From Desulfotalea psychrophila LSv54 (GTDB taxonomy: Bacteria; Desulfobacterota; Desulfobulbia; Desulfobulbales; Desulfocapsaceae): a DNA stretch of 32,000 nucleotides. Shown here one piece after another: positions 4,649 to 19,513 of the stretch. The notes beneath the pieces were generated by a model. It saw only the letters and a program-made list of their open reading frames with translations, did no database searches and had not been told where the DNA came from. The stretch's first letter is position 1. Each line of letters starts with the position of its first letter. The stretch covers positions 3,210,001 through 3,242,000 of the forward strand of contig NC_006138.1 of assembly GCF_000025945.1 (NCBI RefSeq), given 5' to 3'. The position numbers were made by a program, and so were the translations under genes.

Positions 4649-4720
4649 CCGCGCCGCTCTTCTCCCCTTTTGGGGTGGAGCGGCGTGGTAAGCTATCAGC
4701 TTACAGCTTACAGCTTCTTT
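4649..4720 (+). terminator. Two consecutive hairpins after the S1 gene (candidate terminator)
   Basis: Stem CCGCGCCGCTC (4649-4659) / GAGCGGCGTGG (4678-4688, one G-U pair). It is followed by GTAAGCT-atc-AGCTTAC and CTTTT. Confidence 0.55.
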
Positions 4721-4740
4721 TCGATCCACCTCCCACTCAC
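4688..4740 (+). repeat. Copy a of a dispersed intergenic element: AGCT-rich hairpin plus CTTTT-CGATCCACCTCCC tail
   Basis: GTAAGCTATCAGCTTACAGCTTACAGCTT followed by CTTTTCGATCCACCTCCCACTCAC. Related copies are at 9217-9277 and 9913-10005. Confidence 0.6.
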
Positions 4741-5024
4741 TGTTCAACGTTCAGCCTGTTCCAATTATTGTACTCATCCAGCCCGACATCCACCCCATAA
4801 TTGTTCTTGGCCAATACACACATCTCCAGATCACCTGCAACACTACCCCTGTTACGATCAGAAAAAATTGTTCCATGAAGAGATTAATAATGTGTCATTT
4901 TATCTACATTGATTCTTTATTTCATTAGACTTTAACAACCAAAAGCAGTTAAGCTAAACTTACTGCCTTGTTAGGGAGTTGTCCGTCAGGAAAAGACACC
5001 CATATCAAACCTGGAGGTTATTAA

Positions 5025-6995
5025 ATGTGCAGGGCTACAAAAAGACGATTTATTGTTGGCTCAATACTATTTGCCTGTTTGTCCAATTCGCCAGCCTGGG
5101 CAGAAAATGAGATCTCGACCCCATTATTGCCAACAGCCAACAATTTTCGAGATATCGCCGGAATATCAGAGACACATGGCGGAAACGGATTTGTAAATGA
5201 TACCAGATATAAAGGCCTTATGCGAACAGGGGTGTTTTATCGTTCCTCAAAGCTCCAGGAGCTCAACTCGAAAGATTTCAACACAATCTCTGCTCTTGGA
5301 ATCTCGCTGGTTATCGATCTACGGAGTCCTTATGAGATTTCGCTGGCTCCTGACCTACCTTTACCTGGAGCCAGCTTAGTAAATCATAATATATACGCCA
5401 TTAATCCTCCAGTCTCTCCGCCAATTCCTGGTGACTCCCCTCCGCTAATAGACTCCACAACAGAGATGACAAAATATTTCCACGATTTTTATCGGAAATT
5501 CATCACTGATTATAAGCAGCGTGCTGAATTTAAATTAGTTCTCCTGGATCTGATCAACACTCCAGGGGCCGGGCTATACCATTGTACCGGTGGCAAGGAT
5601 CGAACGGGTTGGGTGAGTGTCATCCTGCAAAGTATTGCCGGCGTCTCCGATTCGACTATTATGAAGGATTATCTGGCTACCAATCTATATAGTGAAAAAT
5701 ATATAAATGAATTCCTGGTTAAGATCACGGATCCTAATAAAAAGATTGCCTACAGGATACTTGCTGGAGTGCAAGAAGATTTTTTACAGGCGGCACTTGA
5801 TCAGGTGGTCACTTCCTATGGGTCGATGCAGGCGTATTTGACTCAGGGCTTGGGATTAAGCCAGGCTGATATTTATCTCCTCCGGGCCAAAATGGTTTAC
5901 TACCAGACCCTACCCGGCCAAGCTCAGTTTTCCGGTAATGCTGCCCGAGGCGCAACTTTTCTCAACGCTTTACAGAACTCACCTCTTTCAGGGCAATACT
6001 CAAACTACAACTATTATCTACAGGCAGCTATTGATGCTGGCACCTTGGCTGGCGTAGAAACCAGAGTAGGTGGTCAGGTACATGCTGATGCAGCTGCATA
6101 TCTCTTGCGCCAACCACAGTTAATCGATAATGCCTTAACAACCCTTGCCAGTGGCCAAAATCTCAAATTTGGTGAAGGCAAGGCATGGCTATCAGGTGTT
6201 ACAGAAAACCAGGAGGTGTCAAGCCGTTCTGGCATAGCTAGCAGTGATAGCCGCAGCTCTGGTTTGATTGTTGGCGGGACACATCGTTTTAATGAAAATG
6301 CGAGCGCCTATGTAGGTGCAAGCTATATTTCAAACAAGGTCGAAAGTGCCAGCGCCGACGCTGATATCGACAACTATCTTGTCGTCTTTGGTGGACGTTA
6401 TGCCTTAGCAAAACTTGAAACTGGTCCCTATATGGGGGTCAGGTTCAGTGCCGGCGCCCTTGATTATAAGAGCACCCGGCCCCTGGATTATGGCCTTGGC
6501 ACGGCAACTGGTAAAACCGATGGCAAAACTTATAGTGGCCGTATTGACCTTGGTAATATTTTTGACAGAGGTACCTTTACGATCACACCGCAGCTTGGCC
6601 TGCTCGTCGCCCATATCAACCTTGACAGATTCGATGAACAGGGCAGTGAACTGGGCCTTCACGTCAATGGTATTTCCGAAACAATACCCAGTTTATTAGC
6701 TGAACTGCGCGTCGATCTCAATGGACGACAATTTGGTAATTGGCTGTTCCAGCCTTCCGCAGTGGTAGGCTATGAACGGGCATTAGACACCTCGAATGTA
6801 ACTAGTACGGGTTCGCTTTACGGATATCCCATAAGCCAGGAGTCAGCCTATGACAGTCGTGATCTCGCCAAGCTTGGTCTTGGGGTAAGCGCACGGAATG
6901 GGAACTTCAGTCTACAAGTTGGGGCTAATGTCATGGCCGGAGAAAATATCAACAGCATCTTAGGTGCTAACATCAACTTTTCATATACCTTTTAG
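5025..6995 (+). CDS. Secreted protein-tyrosine/dual-specificity phosphatase (CX5R, Y_phosphatase3/IphP-like) fused to a C-terminal autotransporter beta-barrel, paralog 1
   Basis: GGAGG RBS about 8 nt upstream and a signal peptide (..SNSPAWA/EN). The P-loop HCTGGKDRTG is encoded at about 5580-5609. The C-terminal ~270 aa show alternating beta-strand patterning and end in ..ANINFSYTF, an OMP-type terminal aromatic. The GKAWLSG...GLIVGG...GGRY... pattern is typical of type Va translocators. Confidence 0.85.
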   Translation: MCRATKRRFIVGSILFACLSNSPAWAENEISTPLLPTANNFRDIAGISETHGGNGFVNDTRYKGLMRTGVFYRSSKLQELNSKDFNTISALGISLVIDLRSPYEISLAPDLPLPGASLVNHNIYAINPPVSPPIPGDSPPLIDSTTEMTKYFHDFYRKFITDYKQRAEFKLVLLDLINTPGAGLYHCTGGKDRTGWVSVILQSIAGVSDSTIMKDYLATNLYSEKYINEFLVKITDPNKKIAYRILAGVQEDFLQAALDQVVTSYGSMQAYLTQGLGLSQADIYLLRAKMVYYQTLPGQAQFSGNAARGATFLNALQNSPLSGQYSNYNYYLQAAIDAGTLAGVETRVGGQVHADAAAYLLRQPQLIDNALTTLASGQNLKFGEGKAWLSGVTENQEVSSRSGIASSDSRSSGLIVGGTHRFNENASAYVGASYISNKVESASADADIDNYLVVFGGRYALAKLETGPYMGVRFSAGALDYKSTRPLDYGLGTATGKTDGKTYSGRIDLGNIFDRGTFTITPQLGLLVAHINLDRFDEQGSELGLHVNGISETIPSLLAELRVDLNGRQFGNWLFQPSAVVGYERALDTSNVTSTGSLYGYPISQESAYDSRDLAKLGLGVSARNGNFSLQVGANVMAGENINSILGANINFSYTF

Positions 6996-7048
6996 ACGGT
7001 TGCATCAGGCCTTGGTGGTGAAACACAATAATAGATTCTTGATCTCAA

Positions 7049-7235: not shown

Positions 7236-9176
7236 ATGTGCAGGGCTACAAAAAGACGATTTATTATTGGCTCAATACTATTTGCCTGTTTGTCCAATTC
7301 GCCAGCCTGGGCAGAAAATGAGATCTCGACGCCATACTTAACCAGTGCCAGTAACTTTCGAGACATTGCAGGAATATCAAAAAACTATGGTGGAACCGGT
7401 TTTGTAAATGATACCAGCCATGAAGGCATCATGAGAACAGGAGTATTTTATCGTTCTCCAAAGCTCTTTAACCTTAGCTCGGTCGATTTCAATACAATCT
7501 CTGGCCTTGGGCTTTCGCTCATTATCGATTTAAGAACTCCTAAAGAAATTCAAGACGCTCCAGACATGTCTTTTGGTATTAATGAAGTATATCATAATAT
7601 CTTTGGTACCCAAGATACTCCCCATCTGTCCTACATTACCCCAGAAGATGTTAGGGTGAGCTTCCACAACGCTTATCGGGAATACATAACCGAGGAAGGC
7701 CAGAGAAAGGTATTGAAAAATATTTTTCTCGACTTGGCCAAAACTCCTAAGGCAGCCCTATACCATTGCACTGGTGGCAAGGATAGAACAGGTTGGGTGA
7801 GTGCCGTCCTGCAAAGTATTGCCGGCGTCTCAGATGCGACTATCATGAATGATTATCTCGCGACCAATCTATATATGGAGACAGCTGTTAATAAATTTCT
7901 AAAAGATTATCCTGAATCAATGTGGCCTATTCTTAAATTGCGTTTGGGAGTAGAAGCGAGCTATCTGCAGGCGGCACTTGAGCAGGTGGTCACTTCCTAT
8001 GGGTCAATGCAAGCGTATTTGCTCCAGGGCTTGGATTTAACACCGGCTGATATCTATGTCCTCCGGGCCAAAATGGTTTACTACCAGAGCCTACCCGGCC
8101 AAGCTCAGTTTTCCGGTAATGCTGCTAGAGGCGCAACTTTTCTCAACAGTTTACAGAACTCACCTCTTTCAGGGCAATACTCAAACTACAACTATTATCT
8201 ACAGGCAGCTATTGATGCTGGCACCTTGAGTGGCGTAGAAACCAGAGTAGGTGGTCAGGTGCATGCCGATGCAGCTGCATATCTCTTGCGCCAACCACAA
8301 TTAATCGATAATGCCTTAACAACCCTTGCCAGTGGTCAAAATCTCAAATTCGGTGAAGGCAAGGCATGGCTATCAGGTCTTACAGAAAACCAGGAGGTGT
8401 CAAGCCGTTCTGGGATAGCAAGCAGTGATAGTCGCAGCTCTGGTTTGATTGTTGGCGGGACACATCGTTTTAATGAGAATGCGAGCGCCTATGCAGGTGC
8501 AAGCTATATTTCAAACAAGGTCGAAAGTGCCAGCGCCGACGCTGACATCGACAACTATCTTGTCGTCTTTGGTGGACGTTATGCCCTGTCAAAACTTGAA
8601 ACGGGACCCTATATGGGGGTCAGGTTCAGTGCCGGCGCCCTTGATTATAAGAGTACCCGGCCCCTGGATTATGGCCTTGGCACGGCAACGGGTAAAACCG
8701 ATGGCAAAACTTATAGTGGCCGTATTGACCTTGGTAATATTTTTGAGAGAGGTACCTTTACGATCACACCACAGCTTGGCCTGCTCGTCGCCCATATCGA
8801 CCTTGACAGATTCGATGAGCAGGGGAGCGAACTGGCTCTTAAGGTCAATGGTATTTCCGAAACAATACCCAGTTTATTAGCCGAACTGCGCGTCGATCTC
8901 AATGGACGACAACTTGGCAATTGGGTCTTCCAGCCTTCCGCAGTGATAGGCTATGAACGGGCATTAGATACCTCGAATGTAACGAGTACGGGTTCACTTT
9001 ACGGAATATCAGTAAGCCAGGAGTCAGCCTATGACAGTCGTGATCTCGCCAAGCTTGGTCTTGGAATAAGCGCACGAAATGGGAACTTCAGCCTACAAGT
9101 TGGTGCTAATCTAATGGCTGGAGAAAATATCAACAGCATCTTAGGTGCTAATATCAACTTTCTATATACCTTTTAG
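7236..9176 (+). CDS. Secreted CX5R phosphatase-autotransporter fusion, paralog 2
   Basis: Same architecture as 5025-6995: identical signal-peptide sequence apart from one residue, HCTGGKDRTG at about 7764-7793, and an autotransporter-like C-terminus ending ..ANINFLYTF. Confidence 0.85.
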   Translation: MCRATKRRFIIGSILFACLSNSPAWAENEISTPYLTSASNFRDIAGISKNYGGTGFVNDTSHEGIMRTGVFYRSPKLFNLSSVDFNTISGLGLSLIIDLRTPKEIQDAPDMSFGINEVYHNIFGTQDTPHLSYITPEDVRVSFHNAYREYITEEGQRKVLKNIFLDLAKTPKAALYHCTGGKDRTGWVSAVLQSIAGVSDATIMNDYLATNLYMETAVNKFLKDYPESMWPILKLRLGVEASYLQAALEQVVTSYGSMQAYLLQGLDLTPADIYVLRAKMVYYQSLPGQAQFSGNAARGATFLNSLQNSPLSGQYSNYNYYLQAAIDAGTLSGVETRVGGQVHADAAAYLLRQPQLIDNALTTLASGQNLKFGEGKAWLSGLTENQEVSSRSGIASSDSRSSGLIVGGTHRFNENASAYAGASYISNKVESASADADIDNYLVVFGGRYALSKLETGPYMGVRFSAGALDYKSTRPLDYGLGTATGKTDGKTYSGRIDLGNIFERGTFTITPQLGLLVAHIDLDRFDEQGSELALKVNGISETIPSLLAELRVDLNGRQLGNWVFQPSAVIGYERALDTSNVTSTGSLYGISVSQESAYDSRDLAKLGLGISARNGNFSLQVGANLMAGENINSILGANINFLYTF

Positions 9177-9216
9177 ACGGTTGCATCAGGCCTTGTTGGT
9201 GAAACAGAGAAAAAAG

Positions 9217-9251
9217 AGCAGCTGTAAGATCTCAGCTATCAGCTGCTTTTT
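9217..9251. terminator. Rho-independent terminator after paralog 2 (A-run / stem / T-run, potentially bidirectional)
   Basis: AAAAAAG-AGCAGCTG (9217-9224) ... CAGCTGCT (9240-9247)-TTTT. The stem is a perfect 8 bp. Confidence 0.75.
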
Positions 9252-9277
9252 AACCTAAGCTCCCGTGAGGGTTAAAC
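9217..9277 (+). repeat. Copy b of the AGCT-hairpin + tail element
   Basis: AGCAGCTGTAAGATCTCAGCTATCAGCTGCT followed by CTTTTTAACCTAAGCTCCCGTGAGGGTTAAAC. Confidence 0.6.
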
Positions 9278-9514
9278 CTTCGGTTTGAATTGTTTCGATT
9301 TTACTCATTCATTGGCCAATATTCATTTTCTTTTACTCAAAAGAAAGGAGCCCTGCCACTACGGTCTTCGGCAGTGCGCCTCAAGTCCCACGAGAGGTTA
9401 AGATGGCTCGCTCAAACAAGTCAAACTCCTCTCGCGCAAATTTTCCCGCTGCTCAGCTCCGGACCAATGGAGATCGCCCAACCAAATTCAGTGCCATTAG
9501 TACATGGGCTTCCC

Positions 9515-9934
9515 CTTGGTATGGATCTGAATTCACCATCTCCTCAAGGTTTTGCCCTGTCTACATCTGTATATTGTCCGCCAACTCGGGTTTTCAGGTC
9601 GTCTACATATGTATATTGTCTCTTTCTTCGGTGTTTCGGGCTTTATACATTTGTATATTGTCTCTTGCTTCGGTGTTTCAGCCTTTATACATTTGTATAT
9701 TGTCTCTTTCCTCGGAGTTTCAGGCTTTATACATCTGTATCTTGCTCGACTACTCAAGTTTTTGAGCTTTATACGTTTGTTCACGCCCCGCCCCCTCAAT
9801 GTTTTGCCCTTTGTCTCTCTATATATTGCTCGATTACTCAGGTTTTCAGGCCTTGCCCATCTGGATATTGTCCGTTTCAGCAAAATTCCGGGCCTTACCT
9901 CAACAGGTGCGAGGTTTCAATCCACGCTCCCGTA
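9515..9934 (+). repeat. Non-coding tandem array 1: about 9-10 units with an exact 42-bp period; best-conserved units 9599-9724
   Basis: I phased the units by hand at 9557, 9599, 9641, 9683, 9725, 9767, 9809, 9851 and 9893. The consensus of the central units is CTTTATACATTTGTATATTGTCTCTTTCTTCGGTGTTTCRGG. Similarity decays toward both ends. Each well-preserved unit contains the inverted repeat TATACA-TT-TGTATA, or TACATATGTA. Confidence 0.9.
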
Positions 9935-10005
9935 AAGGAGAGTACACCAAGCTGTAAGCTATAAGCTGTCAGCTTCTTTCCAATCCACCCTCCCGTGAAG
10001 GAGCG
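9913..10005 (+). repeat. Copies d and c of the tail motif flanking an AGCT hairpin
   Basis: GGTTTCAATCCACGCTCCCGTAAAGGAGAG (9913-9942), then AAGCTGTAAGCTATAAGCTGTCAGCTT (9949-9975), then CTTCTTTCCAATCCACCCTCCCGTGAAGGAGCG (9973-10005). Confidence 0.6.
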
Positions 10006-10197
10006 ATTCTCAGGCTTACTGAGAAGGAAATACTTCGCGGCCAGGGCGGGGCCATCATTGCTGTTTTAGGAAGTGGAGAAATCTGGTATCTTGTTCCCCG
10101 AGTAGGCTATCGATATTCCCCACTCACAACAAAACTGTTTGTTTTCAATGCATTATACTTATCCCCACCCAGAGCACCGGCAGGTTAGAAGAGAGTC

Positions 10198-12480
10198 ATG
10201 AAAAGAAAAATTGAATTATTGGCACCGGGCGGAGACATTGACTCCATCAAGGCGGCCATTATAGCCGGAGCAGATGCTATCTACTGTGGTCTGGACAAGT
10301 TTAACGCCAGAAACCGGGCAGAAAATATAGGCATTGAAGAGCTGAATGGAATCTTAAGGCTTGCCCATAAGAACAGCTGTGAGATCTTCCTCACCCTCAA
10401 TATCATCATCATCGAGAGTGAAATACCCACCCTGATAAACCTCCTGAACAAACTGGTTAACACCGGCTTAGATGGTATTATTGTCCAGGATTTTGGAGCC
10501 TTTTACCTGCTCGAAAAATATTTCCCCAGCCTGAAGATCCACGCCTCCACCCAACTGACAAGCCATAATGAGGGGCAGATAAAATTTCTAAAGCGGCTTA
10601 CGGCTACCCGAGTCAATCTCTGCCGCGAGTTGAACCTGAATGAGATAAAAAGCTTAGCCAGAACGGGACATGAGCACGACCTCTTAACAGAGGTATTTGT
10701 CCATGGAGCAAATTGCATCTGCTTTTCAGGTATCTGCTACCTCAGCTCCGTTCTAGGCGGCAACTCCGGCAATCGGGGCAGATGTAGTCAGCCATGCAGG
10801 GACCAATATCTAACTACCGTCAGGGCTAAAAACTTTCCCCTGAACCTTAAGGATAATTCAGCATATGCTGACCTGGCGGAGCTGGCAGAGGCCGGGGTGG
10901 ACTCCATAAAGATCGAGGGAAGAATAAAAAAGTTTCACTATGTGCACACGGTGGTCAACTCCTGGCGGCAACAGCTCCGGAGGCTGAGCAACAAGGAAGA
11001 ACTGCTAAAAGACGATGAAAATCTGCACAGGGTCTTTAATCGGGGCTTTTCCAATGCCTTTCTTAAAGGGGATATTAATAGGAATATGTTTATTGATAAC
11101 CCCAGAGATAACTCTGCCCTCCATCTTGCGGAGATATACGGCGGTGCCAGCGATGAGAATGTAACAAGGGCCAAGAAAGAACTCTATGATCTGAAAACAG
11201 AGATCATAAATGATGTCAGGACGAGAATAGATCAACTCAGCATTGAAAGGGCGCCCTTAACAATAAGCGTTTCCGGAAAGGTTGGAGCCCAATTAAAGGT
11301 ATCTGTCACGACTCCTGATACCAGTTTCACCCTCTACTCAACGACTGAGCTTGCCCAGACTGGCAGGGCCATCACGGCCATAGCCACAAAAAAGGGCAGG
11401 GCCAACCAGGTTCTTGATTACGAAATATTACTCTCCAGATTCAAGGCAGTAAACGATACGGAATATTTCATTGAAACCCTGGAACTGGACGCGCTTGAAG
11501 AGAATCTCTTTGTCCCCTTCAAGGAACTTACCTCCCTTAAGAGCCAGCTCCTCTTCAAACTCAATGGAGAACGGGCGCATCATGCTCCCATTGATCTGCC
11601 CCGCTTAAAAAAACATGATGACAAAACAGAGAGGCCCTGCCTCTCCCTCTTGATCTCCTCCGCAGAGGATATCCATCTCTGCCGGGAGACTTCGGCGGAT
11701 GTTTACTTTCAACTACCCAGTAATTTCAAAAACAGCTTGGTAAAATTTATTGATCTCTTTTGCCAAAACGATAAACTGATCCCCTGGTTCCCCTCCATCC
11801 TGATAGGAGATGACTACCGTACTGCGGTGGAATTTCTTGAGCGAGTCAAACCAAAGGGTATTGTCACGGATAATACAGGAATAGCCCTTGCCGCCTATGA
11901 GCGAGGGATTAAGTGGGTAGCAGGCCCCCATCTCAATACGGTGAACTCTTTTAGCCTCCTCTCTTTAAAGGAAAAGTTTAACTGTTCCGGGGCGTTTATC
12001 TCAAATGAGATTAACGGGAGACAGATAAAAGCCATAAAAAGGCCCGAGGGATTTGACCTCTACTACAGCATCTATCACCCCATCCTCCTCCTCACCAGCA
12101 GACAGTGCCTCTTTCAACAGATCACGGGCTGTGCAAAAAAGAGGATGGACGAGAGCTGCATAGAGGGCTGCGAAAAAACCGCCTCGATTTCCAATCTGAA
12201 AGATGGCACCATCTTCATTGAAAAATCAAAGGGCAACTACCACCATGCCTACCATGAGACTCATTTCCTCAATACGGATATAGCAACTGACACAGAGGGG
12301 CTCTTTACCAGTCTCTTTATTGATCTGCGGGACATAGAGACCAAAACAGAGAGGGCGGTGGATAAGATCGACCTGATAAGGCTTTTTGCAGATCATCTCA
12401 ATGATAAGGCCGATTCAGCAGAAATACTGAAAAGGAACATCTCCCCCACAACCTGTCACCAGTATACAAGGGGCCTTTAG
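10198..12480 (+). CDS. Peptidase U32 family protein, long (760 aa) form
   Basis: N-terminus MKRKIELLAPGGDIDSIKAAIIAGADAIYCGL..FNAR, then HASTQ, E..VHG, and the cysteine motif CICFSGICYLSSVLGGNSGNRGRCSQPC (CX6CX15CX3C) characteristic of U32 proteins. Confidence 0.9.
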   Translation: MKRKIELLAPGGDIDSIKAAIIAGADAIYCGLDKFNARNRAENIGIEELNGILRLAHKNSCEIFLTLNIIIIESEIPTLINLLNKLVNTGLDGIIVQDFGAFYLLEKYFPSLKIHASTQLTSHNEGQIKFLKRLTATRVNLCRELNLNEIKSLARTGHEHDLLTEVFVHGANCICFSGICYLSSVLGGNSGNRGRCSQPCRDQYLTTVRAKNFPLNLKDNSAYADLAELAEAGVDSIKIEGRIKKFHYVHTVVNSWRQQLRRLSNKEELLKDDENLHRVFNRGFSNAFLKGDINRNMFIDNPRDNSALHLAEIYGGASDENVTRAKKELYDLKTEIINDVRTRIDQLSIERAPLTISVSGKVGAQLKVSVTTPDTSFTLYSTTELAQTGRAITAIATKKGRANQVLDYEILLSRFKAVNDTEYFIETLELDALEENLFVPFKELTSLKSQLLFKLNGERAHHAPIDLPRLKKHDDKTERPCLSLLISSAEDIHLCRETSADVYFQLPSNFKNSLVKFIDLFCQNDKLIPWFPSILIGDDYRTAVEFLERVKPKGIVTDNTGIALAAYERGIKWVAGPHLNTVNSFSLLSLKEKFNCSGAFISNEINGRQIKAIKRPEGFDLYYSIYHPILLLTSRQCLFQQITGCAKKRMDESCIEGCEKTASISNLKDGTIFIEKSKGNYHHAYHETHFLNTDIATDTEGLFTSLFIDLRDIETKTERAVDKIDLIRLFADHLNDKADSAEILKRNISPTTCHQYTRGL

Positions 12481-18796: not shown

Positions 18797-19003
18797 AGCC
18801 TATTTGTACCAGAAAAAGAACGAAGCTTCTATGCTGATTGTAGGAGTAGGACAGTATAATGCTTAAAGCTTCGGATAAAGTCGTTTTAGCCTTACTGGTA
18901 CATCATCAATTCAAAATGACAAAAGCAATTAAGCACTGACAAGCAAAGAGGAGATAGACAGTGTTGCAACGATTTTACAGCGGAATAGAGCTTCGTGCGG
19001 TCG

Positions 19004-19297
19004 CCCTCTTGCAGAAGCTCGCAAAGCCCTAAATCAATAAAATGACCCTTGCAGGGATCTGCAAAGACCATTTTATTGCTCCGACAGCCCTTGCATGAAC
19101 CCGCAAAGACCATTTTATTGCTCCGATAGCCCTTGCACGAACCTGCAAAGACTGTTTTCTTGAGTAGACAACCCTTGCACGAACCTGCAAAGACTGTTTT
19201 CTTGAGTAGACAGCTCTTGCACGAACCCGCAAAGGCTACTTTAGTGCTGAGATAGCGTTTGCAGAGACCTGTAAGGATAATTTTATATCTAGGTCAG
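19004..19297 (+). repeat. Non-coding tandem array 2: about 7 units with an exact 42-bp period
   Basis: Units phased at 19004, 19046, 19088, 19130, 19172, 19214 and 19256, with a degenerate unit from 19298. Units at 19130 and 19172 differ only at the last base (CCCTTGCACGAACCTGCAAAGACTGTTTTCTTGAGTAGACAR). Each unit carries TTGCA-N6-TGCAA or TTGC-N8-GCAA. Confidence 0.9.
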
Positions 19298-19513
19298 GCT
19301 TTGCACGCCTATCTGCTTGCTGTCGTGTCTGAGTTTTCTGCATAAAAACCTTCTATTTGCAGTGCAGTTCACAATACCTTGTAAGCATGAAACCAATGGC
19401 AGCCAACGGCTTAGACGATATTCCAAGGGATTAGGACTTCGTGCGGTCCCAATTATTAGTAACAGAATTTGAGCTATAAAATTTTACAGAAAACTTCAGA
19501 AGGAAAGCTGACA

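Follow-up and report, generated by a model that had tools for sequence, protein, structure and literature searches.

Genomic setting of Array 1

The window, by which we mean the whole 32,000-nucleotide stretch of Desulfotalea psychrophila LSv54 analysed here, is ordinary chromosomal DNA. Pfam scans of its long ORFs revealed housekeeping genes: queA, genes for an S1-domain protein, two tandem Tyr-phosphatase autotransporter paralogues, a U32 peptidase and a DUF748 protein; genes for a DUF3482 GTPase, a DUF2868 protein, a GNAT acetyltransferase and an M20 peptidase, and gmk; and a remA-like gene, yicC, genes for a radical SAM protein and a Fur-family protein, and tyrS. The same scans detected no partition, replication, integrase, transposase or cas gene in the 32-kb window and no ParA/ParB/SopB-type domain among its long ORFs; neither rep nor dnaA is present in the window, so this is not an iteron setting. 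The two autotransporter paralogues (5025-6995 and 7236-9176) each fuse a Tyr-phosphatase (Y_phosphatase3) passenger to an autotransporter beta-domain and encode proteins that are 81% identical, and the ~27 nt after each stop codon are duplicated as well (6999-7025 and 9180-9206).

Between the end of the second autotransporter gene (9176) and the start of the U32 gene (10198) lies a 1-kb gap that holds Array 1. The distance to the U32 start is 264-683 bp, in agreement with the 260-680 bp given in a preliminary description of this DNA. Array 1 and its parts are as follows, none of them assigned to a strand.

Array 1, 9515-9892: nine in-register 42-bp units (Tandem Repeats Finder (TRF), lag-42 autocorrelation, identity matrix, ungapped alignment).
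Left edge unit, 9515-9556: type C, degenerate, palindrome lost (identity matrix).
Array 1 core, 9557-9766: five units with a 14-bp palindrome at no more than one mismatch (identity matrix, site scan).
Right-hand units, 9767-9892: three degenerate units of types C, B and A' (identity matrix, repeat family D1).

Array 1 is a strictly in-register 42-bp tandem repeat

TRF, the check proposed in the preliminary description, reported a period-42 array at 9604-9744 (3.4 copies, 89% matches, 0% indels, score 226) and, in a second row, a period of 84 at 9562-9780; its scores for Array 1 span 226-231. Self-identity in 126-bp windows peaked at 0.82 at lag 42 over 9481-9917 and exceeded 0.5 solely at lag 42 and its multiples, lags 40, 41, 43 and 44 all staying at or below 0.5. 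The in-register identity matrix resolves nine related units at 42-bp steps, the first beginning at 9515, the second at 9557 and the last at 9851, and their ungapped alignment (A1) has a mean column identity of 74%. The majority consensus of the nine units is CTTTATACATCTGTATATTGTCCGTTTCCTCAGGGTTTCGGG, and that of the well-kept central units (from TRF, rotated into the same register) is CTTTATACATTTGTATATTGTCTCTTTCTTCGGTGTTTCAGG.

Nine to ten 42-bp units had been proposed; nine stand, free of indels, but the putative tenth, at 9893, has only 10-15 of 42 positions in common with the units, which is chance level, and Array 1 therefore stops at 9892 and not at 9934. The conserved centre and decaying edges described earlier were borne out. 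Units 9599, 9641 and 9683 have 34-38 of 42 positions in common (81-90%) and are probably the youngest, while the outer units have 18-31 of 42 in common and identity falls to ~50% at the edges, the left edge unit at 9515 being closest to unit 9767 (27/42). Unit subtypes run C-B-A-A-A-B-C-B-A' along the array. Block 9767-9892 matches 9515-9640 at an offset of 252 bp, and a 104-nt segment (9542-9645) recurs at the same offset at 9794-9897 with 71% identity; this block copy suggests that Array 1 grew over several rounds, some of them multi-unit.

No in-register indel is present, and the minimum spanning tree of the units needs at least 92 substitutions; the probability of seeing no indel ranges from 0.06 to 0.0001 at an indel/substitution ratio of 0.03-0.1. 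Other bacterial 41-48-bp arrays (L052, L057, L041 and L054 among them), a sample drawn in by the two-unit pattern search described below, likewise have 0% indels at 72-90% matches, so the strict register of Array 1 is not exceptional. The + strand of the array is pyrimidine-rich (AT skew -0.30 to -0.33, GC skew -0.19), and its GC content of 0.44-0.45 is near that of its surroundings.

The unit palindrome is lost from four of the nine units

The palindromic core of the unit is TATACATTTGTATA. The site TATACANNTGTATA is perfect at 9644 and 9686 and carries one mismatch at 9560, 9602 and 9728; at up to two mismatches it occurs six times in the window against 0.75 expected, and a site scan found no single palindrome sites outside Array 1 within the 32 kb. 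The preliminary description placed a TATACA-NN-TGTATA palindrome in each good unit, which holds for five of the nine at no more than one mismatch; from the other four the palindrome is gone. For a 42-mer, such a 6+6 palindrome is only mildly unusual: with loops of at most 8 nt allowed, perfect 6+6 inverted repeats turned up in 1.7% of shuffled units (P 0.017) and in 8.7% of 42-mers drawn at random from the window (P 0.087).

Four columns, T12, C31, T36 and T37, are invariant in all nine units. The palindrome columns are conserved no better than the non-palindromic ones (C31, T36-T38; the 'CTC...GTTT' part), and the most variable columns form a block of ~9 nt (columns 21-29). Two compensatory double changes occur in the palindrome arms against 0.9 expected, a count reached in 110 of 500 shuffles. 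AA/TT power peaks at the 8.4-bp harmonic rather than at 10.5 bp, and intrinsically curved DNA was rejected on this result.

CRISPR-repeat-like modules flank Array 1

The gap is bracketed by a 52-nt direct repeat (9220-9271 and 9950-10001) that is part of a four-copy module (4681-4754, 9210-9283, 9892-9949 and 9948-10012) recovered by nhmmer at E-values of 1e-11 to 3e-17, copy 9210-9283 having E 2.9e-17. The boundary features are the following.

Left boundary module, 9210-9283, minus strand: degenerate CRISPR-repeat-like sequence plus AGCTG/CAGCT hairpin (families D2 and D3, nhmmer).
Right boundary, I-C-like repeat Rb, 9945 to 9914, minus strand: GTACTCTCCTTTACGGGAGCGTGGATTGAAAC (Smith-Waterman, score 41-45).
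I-C-like repeat Ra, 10008 to 9977, minus strand: AATCGCTCCTTCACGGGAGGGTGGATTGGAAA (Smith-Waterman).

Read on the minus strand, each module begins with a sequence like a type I-C CRISPR repeat. Smith-Waterman scores against real I-C repeats were 33-45, with a shuffle mean of 10 and none of 2000 shuffles reaching the observed score, and a blastn search of plasmids with the module hit CRISPR arrays on Lysinibacillus sphaericus pBsph and a Brevibacillus laterosporus plasmid, in both cases immediately downstream of cas5c-cas8c-cas7c. Spaced at 63 bp, Ra and Rb form a two-repeat mini-array (9914-10008), in a window that holds no cas genes. The spacer-like sequence between them (9946-9976) is a hairpin of AGCT heptads with an energy of -12.3 kcal/mol on the + strand, and TRF reported a 7-bp repeat, AAGCTGT, in the 9946-10008 region. 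This hairpin type is joined to three of the four module copies, and Rb adjoins a different, weak hairpin at 9893-9913, 3' of Rb in the minus-strand direction (boundary 9893-9945).

On the + strand, three of the four modules present a hairpin and a T-run right after a gene or Array 1, and they therefore look like terminators. The left module, whose hairpin of -17.2 kcal/mol runs into TTTTT, resembles a terminator for the autotransporter gene upstream. CRISPR-derived repeats thus seem to have been reused as terminators; alternatively, the modules might be crRNA-like RNA genes or solitary repeat units. Whatever their role, they set terminator-like hairpins between Array 1 and the U32 gene, and the gap appears to tolerate repeats, because three CRISPR-repeat-like hairpin modules have also collected there.

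Derivation of the Array 1 unit from the adjacent CRISPR-like repeat was not supported: only a TGAAAC hexamer matches between the unit and the I-C-like repeats (P 0.2-0.97), so we treat the modules as neighbours of the array and not as its relatives.

A second array shares the 42-bp period

The lag-42 signal appears at just two places in the 32 kb, over 9481-9917 (0.82) and over 18968-19347 (0.88), and a scan of periods from 12 to 130 bp found only these two minisatellites in the window.

Array 2, 19004-19297, no strand assigned: six to seven 42-bp units, each with TTGCA-N6-TGCAA (TRF, lag scan).

Array 2 lies 9 kb from Array 1, in the gap from which the DUF2868/DUF3482 operon and the GNAT gene diverge. 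A 34-nt direct repeat brackets it (18969-19002 and 19415-19448, 79% identical) and contains an exact CTTCGTGCGGTC; at its left edge there is a 20+4+20 inverted repeat (19035-19078). Its TTGCA-N6-TGCAA arms are among its best-conserved columns, and it too is free of in-register indels, with a minimum spanning tree of 37 substitutions. Homology between the two arrays was rejected (best circular match 18/42, P 0.34; blastn without a hit).

One reading that accommodates both arrays is a phased protein scaffold. A dimeric DNA-binding protein would occupy the TATACA-NN-TGTATA sites, which are set 42 bp, or four helical turns, apart and would thus lie on one face of the helix, a reading that we regard as rather unlikely; to much the same degree, the bound dimers might polymerise or bridge, with Array 2 serving as the same device for a second, paralogous protein. 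The model is the F-plasmid centromere sopC, a tandem array of twelve 43-bp repeats in which SopB binds the 7+2+7 inverted repeat of each unit and polymerises or bridges. Array 1 resembles sopC in its period (42 versus 43 bp), in that each unit has a single short inverted repeat around a 2-bp centre, and in its run of about ten direct units. The strict register without indels points the same way, as do the five phased palindromes where 0.75 matches would be expected in the whole window, the identical period of Array 2 and its seven phased sites with well-conserved arms, and the fact that the only two minisatellites in the window both have period 42.

Other observations argue against such a scaffold. 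In Array 1 the palindrome has decayed in four of nine units and is conserved no better than the columns around it, no isolated sites occur elsewhere in the window, and the AA/TT harmonic is strongest at 8.4 bp, not 10.5 bp. The 32 kb contain no sopA/sopB or parA/parB gene, no Rep gene and no nearby regulator gene, and the context, unlike that of sopC, is chromosomal and housekeeping. Compared with sopC, the units of Array 1 are far more diverged, four lack the palindrome altogether, and blastn against PLSDB revealed no sequence similarity to any plasmid. Nor is Array 1 in an operator position, because terminator-like hairpins precede the U32 gene, and a homologous array was absent from every collection searched.

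The window also holds a RemA-like gene (PF04025; 23295-23633, minus strand) that adjoins gmk and for which no link to the arrays was found. Proteins of the RemA type assemble into rings able to bind multiple phased sites on DNA, and the RemA-like protein is at most a candidate binder for Arrays 1 and 2.

Array 1 is unique in the collections searched

We scanned the GTDB species representatives with a two-unit pattern (TACATNTGTAT, gap 29-33, TACATNTGTAT), which returned 74 loci, none like the Array 1 unit. With a stricter pattern, the JGI metagenomes gave 13 loci, all of them TA/CA-rich low-complexity sequence, and IMG/VR gave TA/CA-rich low-complexity DNA alone and nothing relevant. Searches of PLSDB and phage records with blastn found no match to Array 1. 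The nearest U32 and autotransporter homologues have 66-69% protein identity, the next-best U32 matches (66% identical) belonging to Desulfobulbaceae and Electrothrix-type bacteria; the closest homologues sit at non-syntenic loci that carry no minisatellite in 75 kb. As far as the searched collections reach, the 42-mer is thus found only here, an outcome that the preliminary description had itself named as counting against its reading of the array as protein-binding sites. That it did not recognise the array as any described repeat family agrees with Rfam, which returned no match, and with the literature, in which we found no description of such arrays.

The pattern search brought up two other kinds of array. 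The first is present in many Bacteroidota genomes and consists of intergenic arrays in which 5-7 tandem units repeat every 41-43 bp; as the search pattern favoured such arrays, their frequency is not interpretable. Within each unit is an ATACA(A/T)ATGTAT palindrome containing a TAnnTTTG motif, and the arrays, often at several loci per genome, are usually followed after 15-400 bp by a long open reading stretch; tandem duplication of promoters or operators could account for them. One Mangrovibacterium MAG has them at L032 (2194-2446), L046 (1095-1364) and L071 (3314-3563), Saccharicrinis at L007, L041, L025 and L033, and further Bacteroidota at L047, L050, L053 and L054. The second kind comes from one 'Stappiaceae' MAG (OZ2199xx-OZ2200xx), in which kilobase-long TG/CA-rich satellite arrays occupy many small 'chromosomes' (L003, L005, L010, L015, L019, L022, L059, L060, L062 and others), with periods of 38-48 bp, up to ~150 copies and 7-20% indels. 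Their likeness to eukaryotic satellite DNA makes contamination or mis-binning possible.

RNA, CRISPR and protein readings of Array 1

The gap could also encode a repeat-bearing non-coding RNA, which would run on the + strand from ~9290 to the hairpins at 9893-9985 and measure ~600-700 nt; we think this quite unlikely. Its eight to nine U/C-rich 42-nt modules might then titrate an RNA-binding protein in the manner of the CsrB/RsmZ sponges, which we find similarly improbable. Such RNAs resemble the gap in carrying many short repeated modules between terminator-like hairpins, and the proposed RNA would be bracketed by the terminator of the upstream gene and two downstream terminator-like + strand hairpins. 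The strong pyrimidine skew of the + strand also fits, as does the folding of the whole gap, which is better than that of shuffles on the two strands (z -3.9 and -3.0, n=20 shuffles). Better-than-shuffle folding is, however, expected, because the gap holds palindromes and terminator hairpins, and the z-scores are alike on both strands, as for any palindrome or repeat DNA. The hairpins themselves are copies of the dispersed module and may be present for unrelated reasons.

Further tests disfavoured the RNA reading. A scan of 9000-10400 found no promoter-like (sigma-70-like) site, and tandem sigma-70 promoters were rejected on the same scan. Rfam returned nothing for Array 1 at gathering thresholds and just noise inside the array at permissive ones; RNAalifold predicted 0 pairs on the unit alignment, leaving no consensus structure; and covariation was not significant. 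The palindrome folds as an RNA hairpin of only -1.3 kcal/mol, so that the earlier view of an RNA hairpin as unlikely is upheld, and a hairpin or structured RNA was rejected on Rfam, RNAalifold, pair counts and this energy. Set against CsrB/RsmZ, Array 1 has no GGA-type motifs in hairpin loops, no promoter, no conserved structure and no homologues.

The genuine type I-C-like repeats that abut Array 1 invite a CRISPR-related reading, in which minus-strand transcription downstream of Ra-spacer-Rb would yield a degenerate or derived repeat array, a proposal that we consider very unlikely; equally remote is the variant in which the array would be the partner RNA of a crRNA-like regulator (CreTA- or crlRNA-like). 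Regular spacing apart, the likeness lies in the minus-strand unit, which has a 5-bp stem, a 4-nt loop and 11 nt ending in TGAAAC, the layout of a class-1 repeat with a palindromic core, and in the ~9-nt block (21-29) formed by the most variable columns. These 'variable' blocks are, though, kin by descent according to the identity matrix and not independent, unique spacers as in type I-C CRISPR arrays, and the period is 42 bp, against 63 bp in the adjacent mini-array and ~63-67 bp in type I-C arrays. Moreover, similarity between the unit and the I-C-like repeats does not reach significance (P 0.2-0.97), no CRISPR-DR model matches Array 1, zero cas genes lie in the 32 kb, and Array 2 has no CRISPR-like neighbour module. 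The features of a CRISPR repeat family are found in Ra and Rb but are missing from the Array 1 unit, which is not homologous to the repeat.

Since no + frame of the unit contains a stop, long ORFs run across the array, and a coding repeat (ORF 9403-9765 of 120 aa, or ORF 9290-9964 of 224 aa, with 14-residue repeats such as LYICILSLSSVFQA) would fit the three + frames that are stop-free across most of Array 1, a period that is a multiple of 3, a Shine-Dalgarno-like GAGAGG 5 nt upstream of the ATG of ORF 9403 and the lowest pN/pS (0.47-0.66, within a six-frame range of 0.47-1.46 among units) in the frame of that ORF; yet it is extremely unlikely and was rejected, as the complementary, stop-filled frame has an equally low pN/pS, the codon log-odds score, trained on genes of the window, is -0.07 (-0.26 to +0.07 over Array 1) against +0.34 for real in-frame genes, Pfam has no match for the ORFs over Array 1, HMMER with the 120-aa ORF against 1.84 billion proteins returned just nine unrelated repeat proteins (20-37% identity), and Array 2, whose register is also 42 bp, is closed in all + frames. 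The array thus looks non-coding, as had been proposed.

Discussion

We favour, with about even confidence, a reading of Array 1 as a decaying non-coding minisatellite that arose through several rounds of tandem duplication and has no demonstrated sequence-specific function. Minisatellites are built of head-to-tail units of 10-100 bp, and Array 1 has nine such units of 42 bp, with lag-42 identity of up to 0.82; by Pfam, pN/pS, codon score and protein search it is not constrained as protein. The reading draws on the homogeneous centre, the degenerate edges and the arrangement of subtypes in higher-order blocks; on a palindrome that is gone from four of nine units, is no better conserved than other columns and, as a 6+6 repeat, is only mildly unusual (P 0.017-0.087); and on the lack of a coding signal, an RNA signal, a sigma-70-like promoter and any copy in the searched collections. 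The housekeeping context, with its lack of partition, replication and mobile-element genes, and the strict register of other bacterial 41-48-bp arrays argue for it as well.

Under this minisatellite reading, a 42-bp segment that held a 14-bp palindrome, by chance or as a seed, would have been duplicated head to tail by slipped-strand events or unequal recombination. Multi-unit blocks would then have been duplicated again, as the recurrence of the C-B-A types at a 252-bp offset suggests, and in the latest step the central A-type units may have been expanded or homogenised. Afterwards the outer units would have drifted to ~50% identity and lost the palindrome. Today the array most likely has no sequence-specific function, we infer from these patterns, and would at most serve as spacer DNA that separates the autotransporter terminator from the terminator-like modules before the U32 promoter region.

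Among known bacterial repeats, intergenic minisatellites (VNTRs), such as the mycobacterial MIRUs and BrickBuilt, likewise consist of head-to-tail non-coding units of tens of bp, with homogeneous centres, degenerate edges, higher-order blocks and few indels. MIRUs overlap the stop and start codons of flanking genes, which Array 1 does not. The unit also differs from dispersed minisatellite families in being confined to a single locus, with no second copy in the searched collections. The Porphyromonas gingivalis 'BrickBuilt' is a MITE that contains a minisatellite (PMC4596501), whereas Array 1 lacks the terminal inverted repeats of a MITE. Enterobacterial REP/BIME elements share with Array 1 extragenic palindromes clustered after genes, regular spacing and a position beside terminators. 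BIMEs, however, occur as hundreds of dispersed copies with REPs in alternating orientation (PMC2817692), while the units of Array 1 are all direct repeats of one unique sequence, with a short, AT-rich palindrome that is restricted to this locus within the window and was missing from the other collections searched.

Four observations weigh against a mere minisatellite. Two unrelated arrays in one window share one period and carry a palindrome each, and none is found in 75 kb of relatives' DNA; zero indels accompany at least 92 substitutions in Array 1 and 37 in Array 2; two terminator-like + strand hairpins follow Array 1, as they would a transcription unit; and the pyrimidine skew of the + strand is strong. 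The coincidence of period, in particular, stays unexplained and keeps alive a more novel reading, even if that reading is an unlikely one. By analogy with sopC, and at the same low level of confidence, Arrays 1 and 2 might represent a class of chromosomal '42-bp phased-palindrome arrays', so far undescribed, that act as protein scaffolds in this lineage. If this were true, a different dimeric protein would polymerise on one helix face of each array, which would account for the shared period, for the lack of indels and for the absence of such arrays from 75 kb of relatives' DNA.

If Array 1 is a mere decaying minisatellite, as we prefer to read it, it may serve as a VNTR marker and as a caution in annotation, the long ORFs that cross it being artefacts. 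The CRISPR-like terminator modules offer a separate and possibly more interesting lead, that of CRISPR repeats dispersed outside a cas locus. Should a 42-bp rule be found genome-wide, it would point to a four-helical-turn protein scaffold or to a mechanism that duplicates DNA by a fixed ruler; neither is known to have been described for the chromosomes of this group.
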